Source of the DNA: Escherichia coli | GTDB lineage: Bacteria; Pseudomonadota; Gammaproteobacteria; Enterobacterales; Enterobacteriaceae | DNA: 9,120 nt | Assembly (NCBI RefSeq): GCF_003334815.1 | Contig: NZ_QOWO01000063.1 | Strand: one strand, 5' to 3' | Part shown: positions 1-9,045 of the stretch, one piece after another | How positions within the stretch are numbered: the first letter of the stretch is position 1 | Layout: each line of letters begins with the position of its first letter | Program-made: the position numbers and the translations under genes | The notes under the pieces: model-generated | Told to the model about the DNA's origin: nothing | Database searches by the model: none | The model's input: the letters and a program-made list of their open reading frames with translations, nothing else

Positions 1-94
1 AAAAAATCGGCTCAAACATGAAGAAATGAAATGACTGAGTCAGCCGAGAAGAATTTCCCCGCTTATTCGCACCTTCCTTAAACCCGATACGCTT

Positions 95-1390
95 TTGATC
101 AATAAAGTCCATGCAGAAAGCCTAAGGCTTGATTGGCTGGCTAAGACCACGCCTCCAGTCGCTAGTGTTCATCCTACCGTGCCTCTTGCCGCTCCTGCCC
201 CTACTATCGATAACGAGTATGTTAATCGAAAGTATTACACTAAGAATCTGTCGTGGTTATGCTCTGAATATCTAAAGCATCGGCGCAAGGGCAAGGTATC
301 GGAGTCGGCTATAAGTGATATCCGTAACTATTTCAGCTTTATGATCGAAGCGATGGGTGACATTCAGTTGGAAGATTTTGATCGCGATTTCCTCCGGGCT
401 TATGAGAGCAAACTGCGCACGATCCCAGCAAACCGTAATTTAGTCAAAGCTAAATATGGAGTGAAAACGCTGGATCAGTTAATCGCCAAAGCGGCAGAAT
501 GCGGCGATAAATTGATGACTGAGGAATCCGTTAGGAAGTATATCAACGGCATTTATGGTGCAATGAAGTGGGCTGTTGCTGACGGTAAGCTACTGAAATC
601 GCCATGCGAAAACTTTTTTCCATCCGATGATAAAGATGAGCGAGATCAGGATCACACTGACATATTTGAACCGCATGAAATTAAAGCGATTTTTTCGTTA
701 CCGTGGTTTGAGGCTGGAACTGTTGAACGCAATGCGCAAGGGCGATTCCATCAATATTGCCCGTTTAACTATTGGGCAATATTGATGGGCTTGATGACGG
801 GGGCGCGAGTTAATGAAATCGCTCAGTTACTGCTGAGTGATGTTCTGGCAGACGACGGCGTCTATTATTTGAACCTTGAAAGCGATAATGAAAGCGGAAA
901 GAAACTCAAAAATGCTAATGCTCGCCGCAAGATTCCGCTCCATTCAAAGCTGATTAGTCTCGGTTTCATCGACTACGTGAACGCCTTAAAAGATGCAGGG
1001 TATACCCGTCTCTTCCCGGAGCTTAAACCACATAAAACAAAAGGCTATGGTAGGCCAGTTTCCGCATGGTTCAATGAATCGTTGCTTGCGGGGCGGTTGA
1101 AACTCGAGAGGAACAGAAGCAAATCTTTCCATTCTTTTCGCCACTCAGTTTCGACTTTGCTCAAGGAGAAGGGCGTTAGCTCAGAATTACGAGCGCAGCT
1201 ACTTGGGCATGTGCGCGGCGAAACTGAAACGGAAGTGCGATATAGCAAAGACCTCAAACCAATTCATATGATTGAAGTCGTGGAGAAAATTGATTTTTCG
1301 TTACCTGATATAGCGGAATTCAACATTCCTGACGGGCTGGATGCTGTCAGAGATGCGTTGCGAAGAAAGCGTGGCAAACAAACAGGTTGA
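95..1390 (+). CDS. Tyrosine recombinase / phage-type integrase
   Basis: Long ORF whose C-terminal half carries the tyrosine-recombinase catalytic signature: LMTGARVNEIAQ (box I Arg), then HSFRHSVSTLL ... LLGHVRGETETEVRYSKD (H-x-x-R, His, catalytic Tyr). The first in-frame start is TTG at 95 (in-frame stop at 32..34) with no clear SD; GTG at 179 and ATG at 341 are alternatives, so the 5' end is uncertain. Confidence 0.8.
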   Translation: MINKVHAESLRLDWLAKTTPPVASVHPTVPLAAPAPTIDNEYVNRKYYTKNLSWLCSEYLKHRRKGKVSESAISDIRNYFSFMIEAMGDIQLEDFDRDFLRAYESKLRTIPANRNLVKAKYGVKTLDQLIAKAAECGDKLMTEESVRKYINGIYGAMKWAVADGKLLKSPCENFFPSDDKDERDQDHTDIFEPHEIKAIFSLPWFEAGTVERNAQGRFHQYCPFNYWAILMGLMTGARVNEIAQLLLSDVLADDGVYYLNLESDNESGKKLKNANARRKIPLHSKLISLGFIDYVNALKDAGYTRLFPELKPHKTKGYGRPVSAWFNESLLAGRLKLERNRSKSFHSFRHSVSTLLKEKGVSSELRAQLLGHVRGETETEVRYSKDLKPIHMIEVVEKIDFSLPDIAEFNIPDGLDAVRDALRRKRGKQTG

Positions 1391-1423
1391 ATCAGTTACT
1401 ATTCAGTTGAGTGATGCTTGAAT

Positions 1424-1455
1424 GCGCTGGGACGCTTCCTGGCGCGTTTTTTATT
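1424..1455 (+). terminator. Rho-independent terminator downstream of the integrase
   Basis: GCGCTGGGA / TCCTGGCGC stem (9 bp including two G-U pairs, 4-nt loop CGCT) followed immediately by TTTTTTATT at 1447..1455; lies between the convergent integrase and the 1523..1855 gene. Confidence 0.45.
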
Positions 1456-1522
1456 AAGGGTGGTGGATTTCATAGTGCTGAATTTGGAGACGCTCAAAAC
1501 ACGTTTGGTGAAACTTGATGAC

Positions 1523-1855
1523 CTACGATTGCACCCGCAGCCCTTCTACGCTTTCTGATGGTAGATTTATCACTGTTTTAATGCTGGCCTCTATGTTGCC
1601 AATGATGTCTTCGCGCGGGCCGCTGCGCCAGTCATCGCTTGCGTAAAAAGCGTCGAGAACCGTAGTCATGCTTTTAGGGCTGACAAAGGCGCGAATCAGG
1701 TAATAGCAGTCCGGGTCATGCAGAGAGTTACCAAACGAAACAACATCGATCCCGTGGCGTTGGTGTAGGGGAACACTGATTTCCTGCATAATGGCGTGAA
1801 AAGCGGCACCGCTGCCTTTGCGTAAGGTGTATTGCAGTATCTCGACGGTTCTCAA
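1523..1855 (-). CDS. Small dimeric alpha/beta-barrel protein, NIPSNAP/ABM-like (hypothetical)
   Basis: 110-codon ORF; the N-terminus MRTVEILQYTLRKGSGAAFH resembles the beta1 motif of NIPSNAP/stress-responsive alpha-beta barrel proteins. TTG start at 1855 with a GGAG 8 nt upstream on the minus strand; an out-of-frame ATG (1860..1858) is followed by a stop after two codons. Confidence 0.5.
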   Translation of the reverse strand: MRTVEILQYTLRKGSGAAFHAIMQEISVPLHQRHGIDVVSFGNSLHDPDCYYLIRAFVSPKSMTTVLDAFYASDDWRSGPREDIIGNIEASIKTVINLPSESVEGLRVQS

Positions 1856-2828
1856 AGCATTATCTCCGCGTCGCCTCTGGACGGCTCCCTTGTTGATAGC
1901 AATAAAGTAAACCGGACTGGGCCATGAAGCTACTGCTAATCAGACAGTCATCCGTAAGCAAAAGCTGCGATATGCGGTTCAAACGCGCTGTAAGGCTCTC
2001 TGGCGAGTGTTTTAAAGAAGGTAGTCGAAATCATGGTGCAGAATTCGCGGCGCTCTCATAGAGTGACTGGCGAAGCCAGTTGAAACAAGCGTAGCGGAGT
2101 TCGAGCAATCAATGAGAAATCTGGGCGAGCTTTAAGCTTTACCGCGCTTCTTAACTTTTGAGTCTGTTTGGCTCTATAAGGATAAGCCTGCCGCCGTGGA
2201 AATTTTCGGACGCTATGCCTGAGAGGGGCGCTTCCAAACCTAGGGCATCCACTTTTTCGCTCCCAACTTATCTGGCTGCATTTACACCGCGAACACGTTG
2301 AACGTTAGCAGCTTCTGGTTCGTATTTGGTTGTTACGCAGGAGAGGTAAAAACGGCAGGTTTACTTTTGACGGCAACGCCATAAGACACCAAACAGCAGA
2401 GAAGTGTAATTGTTAAAAATGTTAAAACATAACTTGTTCTTTAAGATGTAAACCCTTCCTCGGGGGGGAAGCCGGACATATCAACCATAAGGCCATCTGA
2501 GAAGATAGCCTGTAGGTTGCTCGGTTCCCCTTGCCAGATGAAGATCAAGTCTTCCTCGTGGTGTGACGACCTTTCTTGAAAGATGCATTATGCGCAAAAG
2601 AAGCTACTCAAGAATCCGCCGATAGCTACTTTCACCCTCTGCTTGGCTGCATCAAACGCTTGCGCGCCCTACCTACCACAATCAACGTTACGCAGAGTTC
2701 CCATCCTGACGTCTTCCGCTAAACAGCGGTGATCTCCACCTACCCGGACCGGTTTACCGCATGAGGTAGGTGTCAGGAGAGAAGCTAGCACACCATCATT
2801 TTAAAGAAAAGTCATATATATCATATGG

Positions 2829-2851
2829 CTGCGTTCATATTCTGAACGCAG
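2829..2851. repeat. Perfect 9-bp inverted repeat (CTGCGTTCA-N5-TGAACGCAG) just downstream of the DUF1643-like gene
   Basis: Read directly: 2829..2837 is the reverse complement of 2843..2851. No adjacent T-tract on either strand, so it is more likely a protein-binding site or RNA hairpin than a classical terminator. Confidence 0.5.
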
Positions 2852-2860
2852 TTATCGATG

Positions 2861-3327
2861 TTAACCTAAAGGTATGAGAACACTGTCGTTTTTCATATAC
2901 AAAGGGTGCTTCGGCTCACCTGTAGCGTTTAAGACGAAGCACATTGTGCTCTCTGGCAATAGCTGTCGGACGGTCGTTGAGCGTTTGAGGTGTCTTCCTT
3001 CATTTCCCCATGCGGCGACAACCAGTCCGGCACCGCTAACAAGACGTATCAAGTGGCTATCGTTATCTTTGCCAATGGGATCAGACGCTTTCATCATTTC
3101 ATGTCGCTGGGTGTGAACGAATGCGAACAGGTTGGCCATGTATACGCCACCGTAGCCCCAGCTTTTGGCAAACGATATGCAGCGGCTCAAGGTGCGATCA
3201 TCCTTCTCAGCATCGGCGTATGAAGGGTTTAGCCCTATGAAAAGGGCATATGGTTTTGATTCGTCCCAGACTCGTGATAACGAGTAGCGATATTGACCGC
3301 ACGGTGAAAAATCGCGTCTTTAATCAT
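2861..3327 (-). pseudogene. DUF1643-family gene interrupted by a frameshift in a homopolymer run (or N-terminally truncated product from TTG 3190)
   Basis: The 2861..3190 ORF translation contains SRCISFAKSWGYGGVYMANLFAF ... VAAWG ... GEPKHPLY, matching the DUF1643 pattern as I remember it. The same frame continues upstream (KPYALFIGLNPSYADAEKDDRTL, also family-typical) to a stop at 3320..3322 with no start codon. An ATG with an AAGGA SD 8 nt upstream sits at 3327..3325 in another frame and terminates after 30 codons. The two frames meet at the A5 run at 3307..3311; adding one base there gives a continuous ORF of about 155 codons. Confidence 0.5.
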
Positions 3328-3398
3328 TTCGGTTGTCCTTATGAAGTGATGGTTTCAGCCTAACATGTCTTTATCCGTTTTAAGCGCCAACAAACGAC

Positions 3399-3499
3399 CG
3401 TTTTCTGGCACCTCCCAATCGCACGCTTTCACACTGTTGGAAAAATAGCCTTGGCTTTTCTGGCAGGCCATCCTAATGTTGGCCTCGTTTTCTGGCAGG
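3399..3499 (+). promoter_or_regulatory. Three direct repeats of TTTTCTGGCA upstream of the serine recombinase (candidate res-like or operator region)
   Basis: Core TTTTCTGGCA at 3401..3410, 3456..3465 and 3488..3497 (flanks cgTTTTCTGGCAcc, gcTTTTCTGGCAgg, cgTTTTCTGGCAgg). A small inverted repeat AGGCCA-N9-TGGCCT lies between copies 2 and 3. The last copy ends about 22 bp before the recombinase ATG. Confidence 0.4.
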
Positions 3500-3519
3500 G
3501 GTCAGATGGGGAGATAACA

Positions 3520-4080
3520 ATGGCAACTTTTGGCTACGGACGTGTTTCGACATCGCAGCAGGATACTGAGAACCAACGGCTGGAGCTTGGGCAGGCTGGG
3601 TGGCAAATTGATTACTGGTTTGCCGATGTTGTTAGCGGGAAGGTTCCGGCAATGCAACGTAAAGCATTTTCTGAAATGCTCAATAAAATCCGCGATGGTG
3701 AAACGTTGGTGGTAGCGAAGCTTGATCGTCTGGGGCGTGATGCGATTGACGTCTTGCAAACGGTAAGGGCGCTGGCTGACCGTAATATCAAGGTTCTTGT
3801 CCACCAGCTTGGTAACACAGATCTCACTTCTGCCGCTGGGAAGTTGCTATTATCTATGCTCGCCGCGGTTGCGGAGATGGAGCGTGATCTGCTGATTGAG
3901 CGCACTCAGGCGGGACTATCACGAGCAAAAGCCGAAGGTAAGAAATTGGGCAGACCTCCTAAAATCGCGTCAGAAGCCCGTAGAGAGATTTTAGAGAAAA
4001 AGAATAGCGGTTTGAGTATCAGTGCGTTAGCGCGTCAATATGGCGTTTCAAGAGCGACTGTAGCAGCTATTACCGATTGA
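3520..4080 (+). CDS. Serine recombinase (resolvase/invertase family)
   Basis: Translation from ATG 3520 (GGGGAGA SD about 6 nt upstream) begins MATFGYGRVSTSQQD with the catalytic Ser motif, then LVVAKLDRLGRD and a C-terminal HTH (GLSISALARQYGVSRATV) after a GRPPK linker. This is the classic small serine recombinase architecture. The ORF-track start at 3451 is an upstream in-frame extension without an RBS. Confidence 0.9.
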   Translation: MATFGYGRVSTSQQDTENQRLELGQAGWQIDYWFADVVSGKVPAMQRKAFSEMLNKIRDGETLVVAKLDRLGRDAIDVLQTVRALADRNIKVLVHQLGNTDLTSAAGKLLLSMLAAVAEMERDLLIERTQAGLSRAKAEGKKLGRPPKIASEARREILEKKNSGLSISALARQYGVSRATVAAITD

Positions 4081-4093
4081 ATATGGAGAGTTT

Positions 4094-4939
4094 ATGGCTT
4101 ACACAGCAACTGTTATCCCTGTAATGATTGCTTCTCCTGGTGATGTCGCTGAAGAGAGACAAGTCATTCGTGAAATGATCCATGAGTGGAATGATATAAA
4201 TTCAGCTCGTTCAAAAGTAATGTTGACACCAATTGGATGGGAAACTCATACATCACCCGAATTAGGAGTTAGGCCTCAGGAGTTGATTAATCAAAGATTA
4301 TTAGTAGATTGTGATTTATTAATCGGTGTGTTTTGGACTCGTCTAGGCTCACCGACTGGGAACGAGGCCAGCGGAACAGTCGAAGAAATCCACCGTCATT
4401 TGAATGCGGGAAAACCGGCAATGATTTACTTTTCCTCAAAGCCTGTTGCCCCTGAAAGCCTTGATAGAGAACAATATGAGTCTCTTAAATTGTTCAAAAC
4501 TGAGTGCATGCAAAAGGGATTGATAGAGTCTTTTAATGACTTATCTGATTTCAAAGAAAAAGTCCGTAGGCAACTTTCGATAATTATTTCTAGTAGCCCT
4601 TATTTGTCTTCTCTTATATCTACCATTAACAATTCTCCTGATGCGAATACAAGTCAATCTTTGCCAGAAAGTAATTTGTCCGCCGATGCACTCAGTTTGC
4701 TGAAATTAGCATGTGTCGATGATAGCGGAACAATTTATGTGATAAGGCATTTAGGTGGCACGGATATTCAAGCGGGAAATCAATCCTTTGGTGGAAGTTC
4801 GGCTAGAGAGGTAGCCCGTTGGGAGGGCGCACTTAACGAACTGTTATCCTTTGATTTTGTGATTGAAAGAGGGGCAAAAGGACAAATGTATTATGTTACT
4901 CATAAAGGCTGGACATTTCTTGAATCTTTAAATGAATAA
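4094..4939 (+). CDS. Hypothetical two-domain cargo protein; N-terminal domain resembles a DUF4062/TIR-like Rossmann-type domain, C-terminal domain unknown
   Basis: ATG 4094 with GGAGAG SD; starts 13 bp after the recombinase stop. The N-terminal segment VMIASPGDVAEERQVI ... LVDCDLLIGVFWTRLGSPTG ... GTVEEIHRHLNAGKPAMIYF fits the strand-helix pattern and conserved acidic/ER and CD motifs I associate with DUF4062-type domains (from memory, unverified). The gene is visibly more AT-rich than the recombinase. Confidence 0.55.
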   Translation: MAYTATVIPVMIASPGDVAEERQVIREMIHEWNDINSARSKVMLTPIGWETHTSPELGVRPQELINQRLLVDCDLLIGVFWTRLGSPTGNEASGTVEEIHRHLNAGKPAMIYFSSKPVAPESLDREQYESLKLFKTECMQKGLIESFNDLSDFKEKVRRQLSIIISSSPYLSSLISTINNSPDANTSQSLPESNLSADALSLLKLACVDDSGTIYVIRHLGGTDIQAGNQSFGGSSAREVARWEGALNELLSFDFVIERGAKGQMYYVTHKGWTFLESLNE

Positions 4940-4999
4940 TTAAATGCGAGGTCATTACATAAGTTTATTTTTGATGTTAGGGTGAATTCCCTCACATTT

Positions 5000-5494
5000 T
5001 TATTCGAAAGAGGCCGCAATGACTTCTCCTGTTTTTGCGTTGAAAACACAAAAGTATTGAAGCGGAGCTAGCATCCCCAAGCTGTTAACTACCTTAGCTT
5101 GTTGCCCAAATGCCTGAATAATCTTCGCGTTCTCATCGTGCCAGAGATAAGTATTAAATACAGGCGCTTCGCTTTCTTGCCACACATGGCGAAACTTCGC
5201 TTTCTCATCCATTACCTTTTTGCACTCCCTGACCGGGTTATGGTGCGTTTTCGCATAGCATTCCGGGTTGTCATCTGCACATACGATATCTTTTCGTGCT
5301 GTCTGATGCTCAGCACCTACAGCAGAAAAGGCGCATACGCCCAGCACCAATGAGAGAGTGCCCAGAGCACCCCATACAGTTGCGCGTAGCGTGCTGATGT
5401 GCTGCTTTGATACAGCATGGGCAACTACACTATAACTGGCCCAGCTAATCGCGGCTCCCGCTGCAATCGGTAATAAAAAGTCTGCTCCCGTCAT
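5000..5494 (-). CDS. Small membrane protein, two predicted TM helices plus a Cys-containing C-terminal domain (hypothetical)
   Basis: ATG at 5494 with GAGGG SD 5 nt upstream on the minus strand. Hydrophobic segments ADFLLPIAAGAAISWASYSVVAHAV and ATVWGALGTLSLVLGVCAFSAVGA are followed by a soluble domain with several Cys. The ORF-track start at 5551 is an extension without an RBS. Confidence 0.6.
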   Translation of the reverse strand: MTGADFLLPIAAGAAISWASYSVVAHAVSKQHISTLRATVWGALGTLSLVLGVCAFSAVGAEHQTARKDIVCADDNPECYAKTHHNPVRECKKVMDEKAKFRHVWQESEAPVFNTYLWHDENAKIIQAFGQQAKVVNSLGMLAPLQYFCVFNAKTGEVIAASFE

Positions 5495-5554
5495 GATTCC
5501 CTCACTTTCCAAACCACATCGCGCCTGATAGCGAACGCTGGTGACGCCCAACCG

Positions 5555-5568
5555 ATGATGATCATCAT
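5555..5568. promoter_or_regulatory. Perfect 14-bp palindrome ATGATGATCATCAT in the divergent intergenic region (candidate operator)
   Basis: Read directly; self-complementary across the 5561/5562 centre. It sits about 60 bp upstream of the membrane-protein start and about 165 bp upstream of the XRE regulator start. Confidence 0.4.
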
Positions 5569-5734
5569 ACTTGTTGGGTTTTAAATGTCACCATTGGTGT
5601 TTGTTTTGAATCAAAAAGGATTGTCATGATACAGCCGATGAATGCTAGTGACTAAGCTCGCTGAAGTGAGATTGGATTCAAAATATCTCATATGGAGCGT
5701 GGCCTTACAGTGGTCAAAATTGCACATTCAGTGC

Positions 5735-6199
5735 ATGAAAAAATCCCTGAGAATACAGTTTGGCGAGCGGGTAAAAGAACTGCGCATTGCCACCGGATTG
5801 AGCCAAGAGGCCTTTGCCGATCGGTGCGGGTTTGCACGTAGTTATATGAGCAGAATTGAACGTGGTGGCTCTAATGCGTCTCTGGATGCGATTGAGGTGC
5901 TGGCTAACGCTCTGAGCGTTGAGCCGTGGCAGTTGTTAGCGCCTGGCCCATCTGAAGATAACGACTCGGAACTGTTGGTTCCATACGCAGCCGATGGTTC
6001 CTGTTTTCACCCCGGTTTGGCGAGCACCCGTGATGGTTCGTTTGGCGTAGGTGATAAAGCGGCTCAGAAGCGTTTTGGCACGTTTGCTGAAGCTCTTGAG
6101 TATCTTCGTAGCATGGAGACAGCAAAATGGCGTAGGCCTAATCCTAGCGGCAACTGGGGTATCGTATCAGCGGTTCGGTGGGACAAACTGAGAAAGTAG
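5735..6199 (+). CDS. XRE-family (Cro/cI-type) helix-turn-helix transcriptional regulator with an uncharacterised C-terminal domain
   Basis: MKKSLRIQFGERVKELRIATGLSQEAFADRCGFARSYMSRIERGGSNASLDAIEVLANALSVEPWQLL is a textbook XRE HTH. The start was chosen at ATG 5735 because the HTH then sits at the N-terminus; no good SD at either 5735 or the ORF-track start 5642, so the start is uncertain. Confidence 0.75.
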   Translation: MKKSLRIQFGERVKELRIATGLSQEAFADRCGFARSYMSRIERGGSNASLDAIEVLANALSVEPWQLLAPGPSEDNDSELLVPYAADGSCFHPGLASTRDGSFGVGDKAAQKRFGTFAEALEYLRSMETAKWRRPNPSGNWGIVSAVRWDKLRK

Positions 6200-6678
6200 C
6201 TCAAGTGTAAGTTTATGAATTTTTATGCTGTATGGATGAACAGTATTCATTAGATGCTGATAGTCTTATGTTTCATCAGCCCTTTGTTTCTATAAGAGTG
6301 AATAAAACAGCAAAATGCGGGTGCGTTACGGTGGCGTTTCGCTTTGGCTCTTAATGGCTTAATTCATATAAATAACATTGAGTTAAATAGTTATTCTGAA
6401 CAAGGTCTGCCGGGGTCTAACTGGTTTCAAAATCCGAACGCAGTGGCGTTTATTCAACGTCCACATAGCTGACAAATGTTCTTTCCTCCCGACTCGGCAG
6501 ACCTCCAGAAACATTAAAAGGCAGGTATGGCACGTTGATGTTTTATGCCGCCACGAACACTCGGTTTGATTCCGTCCAGCGGATCAAACTTAATATGTAG
6601 CCCCTAGAACAAAAAGGTCCTACGATTGCTCTCTTAACAGCTAACAGGAACGTGATTACAGCAGGTTATAGAGACTTA

Positions 6679-6703
6679 GGTTCGAGTCCGGCCTTCGGTA
6701 CCA
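6679..6703 (+). repeat. tRNA-Leu 3'-end-like sequence (T-loop, acceptor 3' strand and CCA): candidate att direct repeat / island junction
   Basis: GGTTCGAGTCCGGCCTTCGGTACCA matches the 3' end of enterobacterial tRNA-Leu(CAA) (leuX type, recalled as ...CCGGTTCGAGTCCGGCCTTCGGCACCA) with one mismatch. The upstream sequence cannot form the rest of a cloverleaf (the T-stem 5' strand is TTAGG, not GCCGG), so this is a 3' fragment, not a gene. Confidence 0.55.
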
Positions 6704-7236
6704 AGTTACTAAATTCCTTACAATACAGTTAGTTAGACGATTAAATCTGTCTCTTTTGCCTGTAAGAAATGCTCTGTTATGTCCCTTGAAAAAGCCGCTG
6801 TGGTTGATAGTGGTAATTGGGATGTTAACTCATAGCGGCGTGTCGTTCCAAGCGTCAAACACGTACTGACTCAACTTGAAAGCTATGACGTAGCCACCGT
6901 CTCTAAACAATCCCAAAACTTTTAGTGCAGCGCATTTTAGCCCGATGCCCCCATTCTGTCGCCGTCGCGAGACGCCGCAGGGGATAAACAGGTTTATGGT
7001 GGTCACGGTACTTGCAGACCATATGCAAGCTCTGCCAGCGGTTCGGCCTCGCTCCCCTTGGGTACATGGTCATCCTGATAAGCCTCACTAACTGACATAA
7101 CCCTGATGAAGTCGCAAGAGGCTCCGCTTGTTGTCTTACCACCAACGGGGCTTTATGGATTCTATTGCTTAATATATGATTGTATCAAACTTAGACTGCA
7201 TAATTTAAACGAACATAACAATCAGGCAGGGGAAGA

Positions 7237-8061
7237 ATGATAAAGCCATTTTCTGTGAGGTATGGTCATGTTGACGTTAGAGAGCATGTCCAGCTGAATG
7301 ATCTTAATTCTGATACACGCATGGCATTGTGGAATTGCTTATATCTTTTCCTTTGGACTAACAATCGTCAAACTGCTACAGCAACAAAATGTGCGCAGTC
7401 TGTGTGGATATATTATCTAAATCAACCTGCGGATAATATTCCTCGTTATGAAAGTGGATACAAAAGTGATAAGACGTTGCTGACTGCTATCCGAGATTAT
7501 ATATATGGGGAAGCATGGTATTTGGTATATGATTTAATTGAGTTCATCATTGAGAGAACTAATTCATATATTAATCTATCGAAGCATCTCAATTCCATCT
7601 TTAAAAAGCATGGCGTTGGTTATACCATAATAAATGGTTGTATTACTCCTATTTCAAATGATAACGAAATTGAAAGTGTTCAGAACGCAGTTGATAATGG
7701 CACTGATTCATCGCGTAGCCATTTCGAAAGGGCGTTACAACTAATGACGGATAGAGAGCAGCCAGACTACAGAAACTCGATTAAAGAGTCTATCTCTGCA
7801 ATTGAATCTTTATGCAGGAAAATCACGGGCAATGATAAAGGAACCTTGGGGGCTTGTCTTAAAGCTATAGAGGAAAAAGGATATATACACTCTGCAATGA
7901 AAGGCGCTTTTAGTCAGCTCTATGGTTATACAAGTGATCAGGGTGGAATACGTCATGCGCTAACAGAAGAAGATGTAAATCCTACCTTAGCTGAAGCTAA
8001 ATTTATGTTAGTCACTTGCAGTGCGTTCAGTAATTATCTGTTGTCAAAAATAAGTGATTAA
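7237..8061 (+). CDS. AbiJ-like abortive-infection protein (AbiJ N-terminal-type domain plus C-terminal HEPN-like domain), putative
   Basis: ATG 7237 with GGGGAAG SD. The N-terminus FSVRYGHVDVREHVQLNDL ... RMALWNCLY fits the FS-x-R-x-G ... LWN pattern I associate with AbiJ N-terminal domains. The C-terminal part has PDYRNSIKESISAIESL ... GYTSDQGGIRHALTEED ... AKFMLVTCSAF, typical of the linked HEPN-type domain. Family assignment is from memory, not a search. The gene is strongly AT-rich. Confidence 0.5.
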   Translation: MIKPFSVRYGHVDVREHVQLNDLNSDTRMALWNCLYLFLWTNNRQTATATKCAQSVWIYYLNQPADNIPRYESGYKSDKTLLTAIRDYIYGEAWYLVYDLIEFIIERTNSYINLSKHLNSIFKKHGVGYTIINGCITPISNDNEIESVQNAVDNGTDSSRSHFERALQLMTDREQPDYRNSIKESISAIESLCRKITGNDKGTLGACLKAIEEKGYIHSAMKGAFSQLYGYTSDQGGIRHALTEEDVNPTLAEAKFMLVTCSAFSNYLLSKISD

Positions 8062-8079
8062 TTACAGGTTTATAGTTAC

Positions 8080-8114
8080 GAGTGGGTTAGTTACCCACTC
8101 CCTTTAAAATTATT
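8080..8114. terminator. Candidate bidirectional terminator between convergent genes
   Basis: Perfect 8-bp stem GAGTGGGT / ACCCACTC (8080..8087 and 8093..8100, 5-nt loop) followed by CCTTTAAAATTATT; lies between the stop of 7237..8061 and the stop of the 8110..8682 minus-strand gene. Confidence 0.4.
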
Positions 8115-8682
8115 CACCAGACTCTAATCTTTTTTCTCTTTTCTCATCTCTCCTTTTTATTGCCAAATCGTGTTGCTCTTGCAGATACGTGCGTTCTTCG
8201 TTTCTATCGCTTGAAGTATATACGTCTGCTTTTACTTTTTTAGCTCCTTGTGCAATAGGTTTCCAATCCTCTCTTATACCTTTAATTTGTTCTGCAATTT
8301 GCGTCAATGGGCTTCTCGCTCCTAGATAACTTATTCCTTCAAATGTCGCCATGTCATACACATATTCATTTGTTTCTCTATCGTTTGATTTAGGTTTGCT
8401 TGCCCAGCTTATATTAATATTATAAATTTGATCTTTGATTTGTTCATACTTACAGAGATTGCTGGTAAGTGATTGCCCATTTTTTAACACGCTTACCTTA
8501 CTAAACGGAATCTCACTTTTTTCTCTATGCTCCGCATTTACTAGTGGAGGATCAAACACAACCTCAACATTATAGGCAGGTGCGTTCCCTGTATTAGCAA
8601 TGTTAATATCAAAGTAAAAAGCGGCCCAAGGGTTTGGCTCAAGTGTTACAACTATATGGGGTTGAGCTGATGCGTCAACCAT
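8110..8682 (-). CDS. Hypothetical protein (AT-rich cargo gene, no recognisable family)
   Basis: Start assigned to ATG 8682..8680 (MVDASAQPHIVVTLEP...). The ORF-track extension to 8736 would run into the IS terminal repeat and is therefore unlikely to be native. The C-terminal tail is Lys/Arg/Glu-rich. Confidence 0.5.
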   Translation of the reverse strand: MVDASAQPHIVVTLEPNPWAAFYFDINIANTGNAPAYNVEVVFDPPLVNAEHREKSEIPFSKVSVLKNGQSLTSNLCKYEQIKDQIYNINISWASKPKSNDRETNEYVYDMATFEGISYLGARSPLTQIAEQIKGIREDWKPIAQGAKKVKADVYTSSDRNEERTYLQEQHDLAIKRRDEKREKRLESGE

Positions 8683-8710
8683 TCTTTTTGTCTCGTCTGC
8701 TCTGAAGTGG

Positions 8711-9045
8711 TGAAGTGGTTTACTGAATTTGGCCACCTGAACAGAGGTGATATGCTCACCTCAGAACAACACAGGTGCTCCAATGAAAAAAAGAAATTTT
8801 AGCGCAGAGTTTAAACGCGAATCCGCTCAACTGGTTGTTGACCAGACATACACGGTGGCAGATGCCGCCAAAGCTATGGATGTTGGCCTTTCCACAATGA
8901 CAAGATGGGTCAAACAACTGCGTGATGAGCGTCAGGGCAAAACACCAAAAGCCTCTCCGATAACACCAGAACAAATCGAAATACGTAAGCTGAGGAAAAA
9001 GCTACAACGCATTGAAATGGAGAATGAAATATTAAAAAAGGCTAC
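8711..9045 (+). mobile_element. IS3-family insertion sequence (IS911-like), left end with terminal inverted repeat and orfA; truncated/interrupted at 9045
   Basis: The terminus TGAAGTGGTTTACTGAATTTGGCCACC begins with the TGAAGTGG...GGCCACC pattern I recall for IS911 ends, and the downstream sequence encodes an IS911-type OrfA. An extra TGAAGTGG copy sits immediately upstream at 8703..8710. Confidence 0.75.
8783..9045 (+). CDS. IS3-family (IS911-like) transposase OrfA (HTH/leucine-zipper N-terminal protein), 3' end disrupted by insertion
   Basis: Translation [88 protein letters not shown] is near-identical to IS911 OrfA as I remember it. After codon T (9044..9046) the reading frame continues into unrelated sequence. 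Confidence 0.8.

Follow-up and report, generated by a model that had tools for sequence, protein, structure and literature searches.

Two probably independent cargo genes beside leuX in Escherichia coli: an intact AbiJ-NTD4 defence candidate and a relic truncated by IS911

Two convergent genes in a 9,120-nt stretch of Escherichia coli DNA (hereafter the window), at positions 7237..8061 and 8110..8682, most probably mark the tRNA-proximal end of an old leuX-associated island that carries two unrelated cargo genes, an intact Abi-type candidate and a relic left by IS911. We give this reading a probability of about 0.78. The original prediction had described the pair as an AbiJ/HEPN-like protein next to a protein of no recognisable family, which could be either a two-gene defence system or two independent cargo genes. 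Both ORFs were confirmed and the same two CDSs are annotated in RefSeq; the evidence presented here favours independent cargo.

The leuX locus

The window is part of the E. coli chromosome and matched strain E94 and others over 9 kb at 99.9% identity. ARAGORN detected no complete tRNA in it. At 6679..6704 (+ strand) there was an attR-like copy of the leuX (tRNA-Leu(CAA)) 3′ end, which was compared with the leuX genes of two other loci (L053 and L003) and matched 24 of the last 25 nucleotides. A complete tRNA-Leu occupied the equivalent position in loci L003, L004, L006 and L008. In E. coli ATCC 11775, the AbiJ block directly follows leuX, and the DNA directly after the tRNA gene is that found directly 3′ of 6679-6704 in the window. 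Genomes of the E94 type carried, in order, leuX, an integrase, NIPSNAP, DUF1643 (frameshifted), a serine recombinase, a 281-aa protein, a membrane protein, an HTH protein, the attR copy, the AbiJ-NTD4 gene, a hypothetical gene and an IS911 fragment with IS30. This gene order at leuX, together with attR, therefore indicated that the integrase island (window ~1-6678) was a later insertion at leuX. Site 6679..6704 is the right end of this ~6.6-kb island, which lies between leuX and the AbiJ block, and the block itself is older leuX-downstream DNA. We had considered the AbiJ block as a part of the window's integrase island and rejected this assignment because the block lies outside that island's attR.

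The AT-rich character that had been predicted for the block was found, with a GC content of 0.36-0.39 over 7200-8600 against 0.43-0.53 in most other parts of the window, though a second stretch at 4200-5000 was also low (0.38-0.40). The proposed setting of att repeat, nested insertion sequences and AT-rich cargo was likewise sound: besides the leuX repeat, the left end of IS911 with a fragment of orfA (8783-9040) was located at 8711..9040 (+ strand), and IS30 interrupts the orfA fragment. The stretch with the two genes was present in 463 out of 5426 complete E. coli genomes (at least 80% coverage). Ahead of the genes, the leuX-proximal segment 6705..7170 precedes a variable cargo slot. Three loci (L006, L007 and L008) were 95.6-95.7% identical to the window over this segment, or more precisely over leuX and the ~490 bp after it, and also carried a homologue of the 8110..8682 gene, a membrane-protein gene described below. 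In all three, other genes stand where the window has the AbiJ gene. The segment was found in 630 E. coli genomes, where it carries no annotated feature. Rfam gave no match in the window, and none in the conserved region 6600-7240 at a relaxed threshold either. This segment is possibly an arm of the island attachment site.

The AbiJ-NTD4 protein

The gene at 7237..8061 (+ strand) is intact and encodes a protein of 274 aa, the identical RefSeq entry of which (WP_000594911.1) is named "AbiJ-NTD4 domain-containing protein". Its N-terminal NTD4 domain (residues 4-153, nt 7246-7695) matched positions 2-151 of the 152-position Pfam profile AbiJ_NTD4 (PF18863; E = 3.8e-26), a profile that recognised 62/62 homologues of the protein. 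The PADLOC candidate profile PDC-S32 (PDLC04997; E = 5.6e-104) covered residues 3-272 of 274, aligned with profile positions 8-281 of 285. These two matches bore out the AbiJ-type call of the original prediction and, by sequence, make the protein a member of PF18863 and PDC-S32, already catalogued and annotated as such. The NCBIfam STM4504/CBY_0614 subfamily model gave 15.8 bits only, against a cut-off of 150. The AbiJ-NTD4 family amounted to 4437 proteins (E ≤ 1e-3, 90%-clustered database). No paper on PDC-S32 was found in the literature. The PDC set comprises 145 single- and multi-gene defence candidates obtained by "guilt-by-embedding", that is, families chosen because they occur embedded in BREX, DISARM or type I RM systems (bioRxiv 10.1101/2024.01.29.577857); we read the "S" of the label as single-gene.

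The AbiJ-NTD4 family was frequent on (pro)phage contigs (65 IMG/VR loci), and no neighbour family was common to these 65 loci. Judging from these comparisons, 7237..8061 is a stand-alone, single-polypeptide Abi-type defence candidate with no obligatory partner. A type III toxin-antitoxin organisation (AbiF/AbiV/ToxIN-like) was also considered and rejected because there was no repeat array for an antitoxin RNA; the search for tandem repeats over 6600-8800 returned only a 7-nt low-score run in the 8110..8682 gene and an 8-nt repeat at the IS junction.

Conservation was determined from an alignment of 62 members (39-78% identity). Three N-terminal residues (F5, S6 and Q19) were invariant and another three (R8, G10 and W32) almost invariant, while the C-terminal domain had invariant H162, D177, R179-N180-S-I-K-E-S185, E190, H218, G237 and R239-H240, the last three belonging to the motif GGIRH. 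The motifs that the original prediction had cited (F5, S6, R8, G10 and W32, and G237, R239 and H240 of GGIRH) are therefore real and conserved. A profile of the C-terminal domain searched against 1.84 billion representatives gave 4820 matches (50%-cluster representatives); among the best 150 of these 4820, the domain was almost always C-terminal in a protein of similar length, and no other N-terminal fusions were revealed.

The predicted HEPN-like nature of the C-terminus held for the fold and failed for the motif and the profile. In the predicted model, of moderate confidence, the domain (approximately residues 155-274, nt ~7699-8058) adopts the four-helix up-and-down HEPN fold. No Pfam HEPN family matched any of the 62 members at E ≤ 0.001, the best being DUF4145 at 0.023 in one member, and a precomputed PF14355 (Abi_C) tag carried by one relative (P0133) could not be reproduced. 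Sequence searches of PDB chains with both protein families of the pair returned nothing significant. The HEPN fold of this domain therefore stands on the predicted structure, in which pLDDT was ~52 in block 231-240 and below 50 at 232-236, just ahead of R239-H240. A conserved R...H pair at the canonical 4-6 spacing (Rx4-6H) was not present; R239 and H240 are adjacent instead. The absence of the canonical spacing makes the RNase activity of the product uncertain, and the adjacent R239-H240 may form, with R179-N180 and H218, a variant active site. An hhalign comparison of the C-terminal profile with proteins from L006 and L008 that carry the canonical RNxxxH motif revealed no relationship (probability 0.2%). 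This alignment provided no sequence-based mapping of R239-H240 onto the canonical Rx4-6H.

A different possibility is that the AbiJ-NTD4 protein is a non-catalytic HEPN-fold module for binding or regulation, similar to MtlR or the sacsin-type HEPNs, and maybe without a role in defence. We consider it unlikely. The polar residues of active-site type (R179, N180, E184, H218, R239 and H240) were invariant across the 62 sequences despite their divergence, (pro)phage contigs often carry the family, its selection as a PDC came from its embedding in other defence systems, and other defence candidates occupy the neighbouring variable slot.

The truncated membrane-protein gene

The convergent gene at 8110..8682 (- strand; RefSeq CDS WP_000227281.1) encodes 190 aa from its ATG, and its frame remains open up to a GTG at 8736 (208 aa), reaching into IS911. 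Its product had no match in Pfam or PADLOC. The claim that it had no recognisable family did not survive: it matched phrog_11802 with E = 7e-86 and was 70% identical over 190 aa by BLASTP, and 71% identical by tblastn, to ORF1 of the P2-EC53 Z region (AJ512682, "putative lysogenic conversion protein"), which places it in the PHROG 11802/P2-EC53 ORF1 family. It also matched (tblastn, 71%) a gene of the P2-like phage R18C that has the tail-fibre genes on one side and the tail-sheath gene on the other.

The family comprised 234 proteins. The P2-EC53 and R18C members are 230 aa long, and the family as a whole is ~230 aa long with a near-invariant N-terminal transmembrane helix. All its neighbours in AFDB and PDB were uncharacterised or generic Ig-like folds, and no paper on P2-EC53 was found in the literature. 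The charge beside the helix was about -1 N-terminally and +1.6 C-terminally, so that the protein is predicted to be N-out/C-in with a cytoplasmic body; the predicted architecture is an N-terminal transmembrane helix, then an Ig-like beta-sandwich on the cytoplasmic side, and helices at the C-terminus. A role in lysogenic conversion or exclusion is suggested only by the location of the family in the P2 Z/fun accessory locus.

Several lines of evidence indicated that the window copy has lost its N-terminus. By BLASTP, residues 13-202 of the window protein (counted from the GTG) corresponded to residues 39-228 of the 230-aa P2-EC53 ORF1. Among the 120 homologues listed, all copies more than 92% identical to the window were short and read into the same upstream sequence, whereas all full-length members (215-250 aa) aligned from their residue ~39. 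The missing part is a hydrophobic helix that ends in ATFFLWRVT..LA.ETKRM, in which A27, T28, L31, W32, V34 and T35 were invariant in 43 diverse members; at the sequence level, it ranks among the best-conserved stretches of the family. The Kyte-Doolittle maximum over 19 residues was 1.92 for a full-length member (residues 12-30) against 0.78 for the 190-aa product, which contains no hydrophobic segment by this measure. Aligned with the family, the annotated ATG at 8682 corresponds to the internal Met45, that is, the Met of "ETKRM".

DNA homology to the window ended at 8696-8701 in six independent loci, and IS911 copies elsewhere in E. coli aligned from window position 8711, 29 nt from the ATG. 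At the junction, the sequence TGAAGTGG is repeated 2.1 times (8703..8719), and the IS911 terminus is formed by the second copy, which begins at 8711. It follows from the two boundaries that IS911 cost the gene its promoter, its start codon and 38 codons. The original prediction had seen an IS911-like end replacing the region about 28 bp before the start codon; the end is indeed there, but the loss reaches into the coding region and the helix is gone. We thus describe 8110..8701 (- strand) as a 5′-truncated gene for a membrane-anchored beta-sandwich protein of the PHROG 11802/P2-EC53 ORF1 family, with codons 1-38 missing; as judged by alignment, 8110..8682 is a truncated member and not one of functional length. 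With the anchor gone and its own expression signals probably gone too, the remnant is most likely non-functional and most likely does nothing.

It is improbable, in our opinion, that the truncated 190-aa product is still made, from a promoter in or reading out of IS911, as a soluble beta-sandwich with a new or residual function. The ORF has stayed open for its 190 codons, is 99-100% identical in hundreds of E. coli genomes, is annotated as a CDS in RefSeq and has the in-frame GTG at 8736 within the IS end. However, the part that was lost is one that the family conserves best, promoter-like sites were no commoner than in shuffled sequence, and recent common ancestry explains the high identity in E. 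coli equally well. Moreover, NCBI marks a further-shortened copy from O26 as a pseudogene.

The two genes are 48 nt apart. In the spacer, a perfect 8-bp stem (GAGTGGGT/ACCCACTC) with a 5-nt loop was read from the sequence at 8080..8100; this hairpin, which has no T-run, is a possible bidirectional terminator. The terminator scan reported none at 8080..8100 by its criteria, and promoter and terminator counts in the region were at or below the shuffled expectation.

Linkage of the two genes

The association of both families was determined in two directions. In the forward test, 45 loci with the membrane-protein family, from one genome per GTDB species, were searched with the AbiJ-NTD4 HMM for a partner within 4 kb. 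In the reverse test, the membrane-protein family was sought within 3.5 kb of the AbiJ-NTD4 member on 65 IMG/VR contigs. An AbiJ-NTD4 partner was present at one out of 45 loci, L010, a contig labelled as a Collinsella MAG with HMM scores equal to those of the E. coli loci (E. coli-identical), and at 0/44 elsewhere. Conversely, one out of 65 contigs carried the membrane-protein family (L054, 100% identical to the window) and 0/64 of the others did. The co-occurrence across genomes that a two-gene system implies was thus not observed. Clustering of the neighbours of the membrane-protein gene revealed no family in common beyond closely related elements, and P2-EC53 and R18C carry this gene without an AbiJ-type neighbour.

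Two loci had the pair with a full-length partner, L004 of Enterobacter roggenkampii and the metagenomic contig L005. Both share with the window one contiguous segment, from 6675/6679 to 8696/8701, at 86-90% DNA identity. As one contiguous ~2-kb module, they reflect common descent and not an independent association. According to these alignments, the pair recurs only in a single ~2-kb module of close Enterobacteriaceae relatives beside leuX. Furthermore, the two genes decay independently: in O26:H11 strains, IS600 shortens the remnant further while the AbiJ gene is intact, and in strain G1/2 the AbiJ gene has an IS1A in its 3′ end.

The hypothesis of a two-gene system, for defence or of the toxin-antitoxin type, in which a HEPN effector is paired with a 190-aa partner, was therefore largely refuted by the 0/44 and 0/64 counts, and we hold it to be very improbable. 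The 48-nt distance, the AT-rich composition in common and the same arrangement with a full-length partner in L004 and L005 would speak for it, and the three different slot occupants with HEPN-type features beside the membrane-protein gene, described below, could hint at a looser coupling. Against it, linkage is absent outside the one inherited module, the E. coli copies of the partner among the homologues listed are all truncated and the one in O26:H11 is shortened further next to an intact AbiJ gene, the convergent orientation excludes an operon, P2 prophages carry the partner family on its own, and the families differ widely in size (4437 and 234 proteins). A partner conserved beside the effector across independent contexts, as expected of two-gene toxin-antitoxin or defence systems, was not found. 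The two genes are independent cargo, one intact and one a relic, and not a defence pair.

The slot beside leuX had different contents in other loci. In L006 it held a 182-aa protein with an RNITVH motif and a 156-aa ORF whose N-terminus includes a hydrophobic stretch, and in Kosakonia (L008) a DUF3800-like protein matching PDC-M04A and a 190-aa protein with an RNALAH motif. In E. coli E2348/69, leuX and the conserved segment are followed by the 182-aa gene and then by a full-length membrane-protein gene (230 aa; WP_000569068.1), after which come a recombinase and a DEAD-box helicase; another E. coli strain had a 304-aa gene in the slot. By comparison of these contents, the AbiJ position at leuX is a swappable cargo slot. 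One further reading is that PHROG 11802 is a fixed membrane module beside swappable HEPN-type effectors, that the family acts in phage exclusion or defence, and that the window allele is a natural partner-less variant; we regard it as a long shot. The interchangeable effectors proposed would be AbiJ-NTD4/HEPN here, the 182-aa RNITVH protein in E2348/69, and PDC-M04A with the 190-aa RNALAH protein in Kosakonia. If true, the leuX islands of Enterobacteriaceae would hold a loosely coupled two-component arrangement in which the RNase partner can be exchanged. A scan for the RNxxxH motif among the neighbours of the membrane-protein family at the 45 loci was noisy in high-GC genomes.

Discussion

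Under the preferred reading, that of an intact Abi-type candidate next to an unrelated relic, the AbiJ-NTD4 protein would work alone. By analogy with the AbiJ class, the NTD4 domain would sense a phage component and keep the HEPN domain inactive; infection would relieve this inhibition and the HEPN domain, probably as a dimer, would cut RNA, leading to arrest of the cell or the phage and hence to an aborted infection. Invariant R239-H240, together with R179-N180 and H218, are the candidates for the catalytic residues. For its part, IS911 would have beheaded the gene of a ~230-aa membrane-anchored protein, and the AbiJ protein would have no need of the remnant. The proposal made for the AbiJ class is that the NTD recognises a phage component and frees the HEPN domain to degrade RNA (Anantharaman et al., PMC3710099). 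Lactococcal AbiJ has no known mechanism, and the mutations that allow escape from it have been mapped to an ssDNA-annealing protein of the phage (PMC13064643).

Compared with known systems, the 7237..8061 product showed no detectable difference from PDC-S32, being a full-length HMM match and a single gene with no conserved partner. With the Lactococcus lactis AbiJ class, it shares the architecture of a variable N-terminal AbiJ-NTD and a C-terminal HEPN fold in one polypeptide, as well as the context of mobile elements and defence. AbiJ-NTD4 was defined on such NTD+HEPN proteins, with CBY_0614 as the prototype (Anantharaman et al. 2013, PMC3710099); the alignment of CBY_0614 is not in the supplement of that paper. 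The Rx4-6H motif is reported as conserved in the AbiJ family (PMC3710099), whereas the window protein lacks it and has no significant match to Abi_C or any other HEPN profile, which makes it an architectural analogue of L. lactis AbiJ. It also differs from canonical HEPN RNase toxins (LsoA/RnlA, MNT-HEPN SO_3166, Csm6 and AbiV) in the spacing of the catalytic motif, with R and H adjacent, and nearby there is no MNT or RnlB/Dmd-like antitoxin gene and no RNA-repeat antitoxin. Regarding the neighbour, unlike P2-EC53 ORF1, the window copy is devoid of residues 1-38, including the transmembrane helix, and resides in a leuX island instead of a P2 prophage.

The region does not constitute a new kind of system; what is new is a correction, namely that the neighbour is a relic and not a partner. 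This prevents its mis-annotation as a "two-gene AbiJ system" or as an "unknown 190-aa defence partner". About 460 complete E. coli genomes carry the IS911-decapitated relic. In addition, WP_000594911.1 offers a convenient E. coli-native representative of PDC-S32/AbiJ-NTD4, a class with a non-canonical adjacent R-H motif. As a modest lead, the leuX-proximal slot and the P2 Z/fun family PHROG 11802 are places in which to seek candidate defence or exclusion genes.

The leuX block carries a variable cargo slot

The slot that separates the leuX-proximal segment from the membrane-protein gene, filled in the window by the AbiJ-NTD4 gene, contained cargo that differed from genome to genome. Among the comparison loci, the slot cargo occupied 4742-6166 and 6905-7993 in the Kosakonia locus L008 and in L006, respectively, and 5514-6062 and 5513-6427 in two further loci, L119 and L120. 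Examples of this cargo included a DUF3800-like match to PDC-M04A together with a 190-aa protein carrying RNALAH, a 182-aa protein carrying RNITVH and a 304-aa protein. As judged from their sequences, the RNxxxH motifs of the 190-aa and 182-aa proteins look like canonical HEPN motifs.

The segment on the leuX side, of about 466 bp (6705-7170), directly follows the leuX/att sequence and has no annotation in the window. It was found with 95.6-95.7% identity in Kosakonia and other Enterobacteriaceae loci in which the adjoining cargo genes were different, and none of the 630 E. coli genomes that carry it annotates a feature there. An Rfam search of the segment returned no match, and the R-rich 80-aa ORF on its minus strand (6903..7145) was implausible. 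The segment may be a cis element belonging to the island, such as an att-site arm.

IS insertions have modified the block

At the junction between IS911 and the truncated membrane-protein gene (8703-8719), the 8-nt IS911 terminal sequence TGAAGTGG was present in two tandem copies, and other E. coli IS911 copies aligned from the second TGAAGTGG copy only, at 8711. IS600 and IS1A represented secondary insertions into the same leuX block in O26:H11 and G1/2-type strains, respectively. In E. coli O26:H11 11368 (L121, 1561-3231) IS600 shortened the remnant gene further, as seen in O26:H11 strains. In strain G1/2 (L122, 688-2060), as in strains of its type, IS1A interrupted the AbiJ-NTD4 gene in its 3' end.

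Other genes of the integrase island

Within the integrase island, a serine recombinase gene (3451..4080) was followed 14 nt later by the gene of a 281-aa protein (4094..4939), whose N-terminal ~160 residues matched the PADLOC candidate PDC-S60 with an E value of 5.8e-27, the match spanning profile positions 5-169 of 906. For this match, one RefSeq record gives a DUF4062 domain-containing protein. The 281-aa protein is a second defence candidate. The island also encodes a 185-aa HTH protein (5642-6199) that matched PADLOC 'control protein' models (E 1.9e-18). Homologues of this protein were located no more than 4 kb from the membrane-protein gene in L015, L017, L018 and L019, a proximity that may reflect coincidence or a shared island backbone.

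Relatives in other taxa and on viral contigs

Members of the membrane-protein family in Stutzerimonas, Bordetella and two Luteimonas species had identical HMM scores, and the genes flanking the member were common to L014, L015, L017 and L018 (matches at ~4001-4627, and at 1149-1775 in L014). The common flanking genes suggest a recent inter-order transfer of these members on one mobile element. L010 (JAIJJM010000048.1), labelled as a Collinsella sp. MAG, contained the E. coli leuX block and the window HTH gene, with HMM scores equal to those of the E. coli loci; it is probably an E. coli contig mis-binned into the MAG.

In a low-GC group of IMG/VR viral contigs (24 loci within L090-L118), the AbiJ-NTD4 homologue had a small Xre-type HTH gene ahead of it (~3100-3500, upstream of the match), an arrangement that may reflect lineage-specific regulation or merely related phages.
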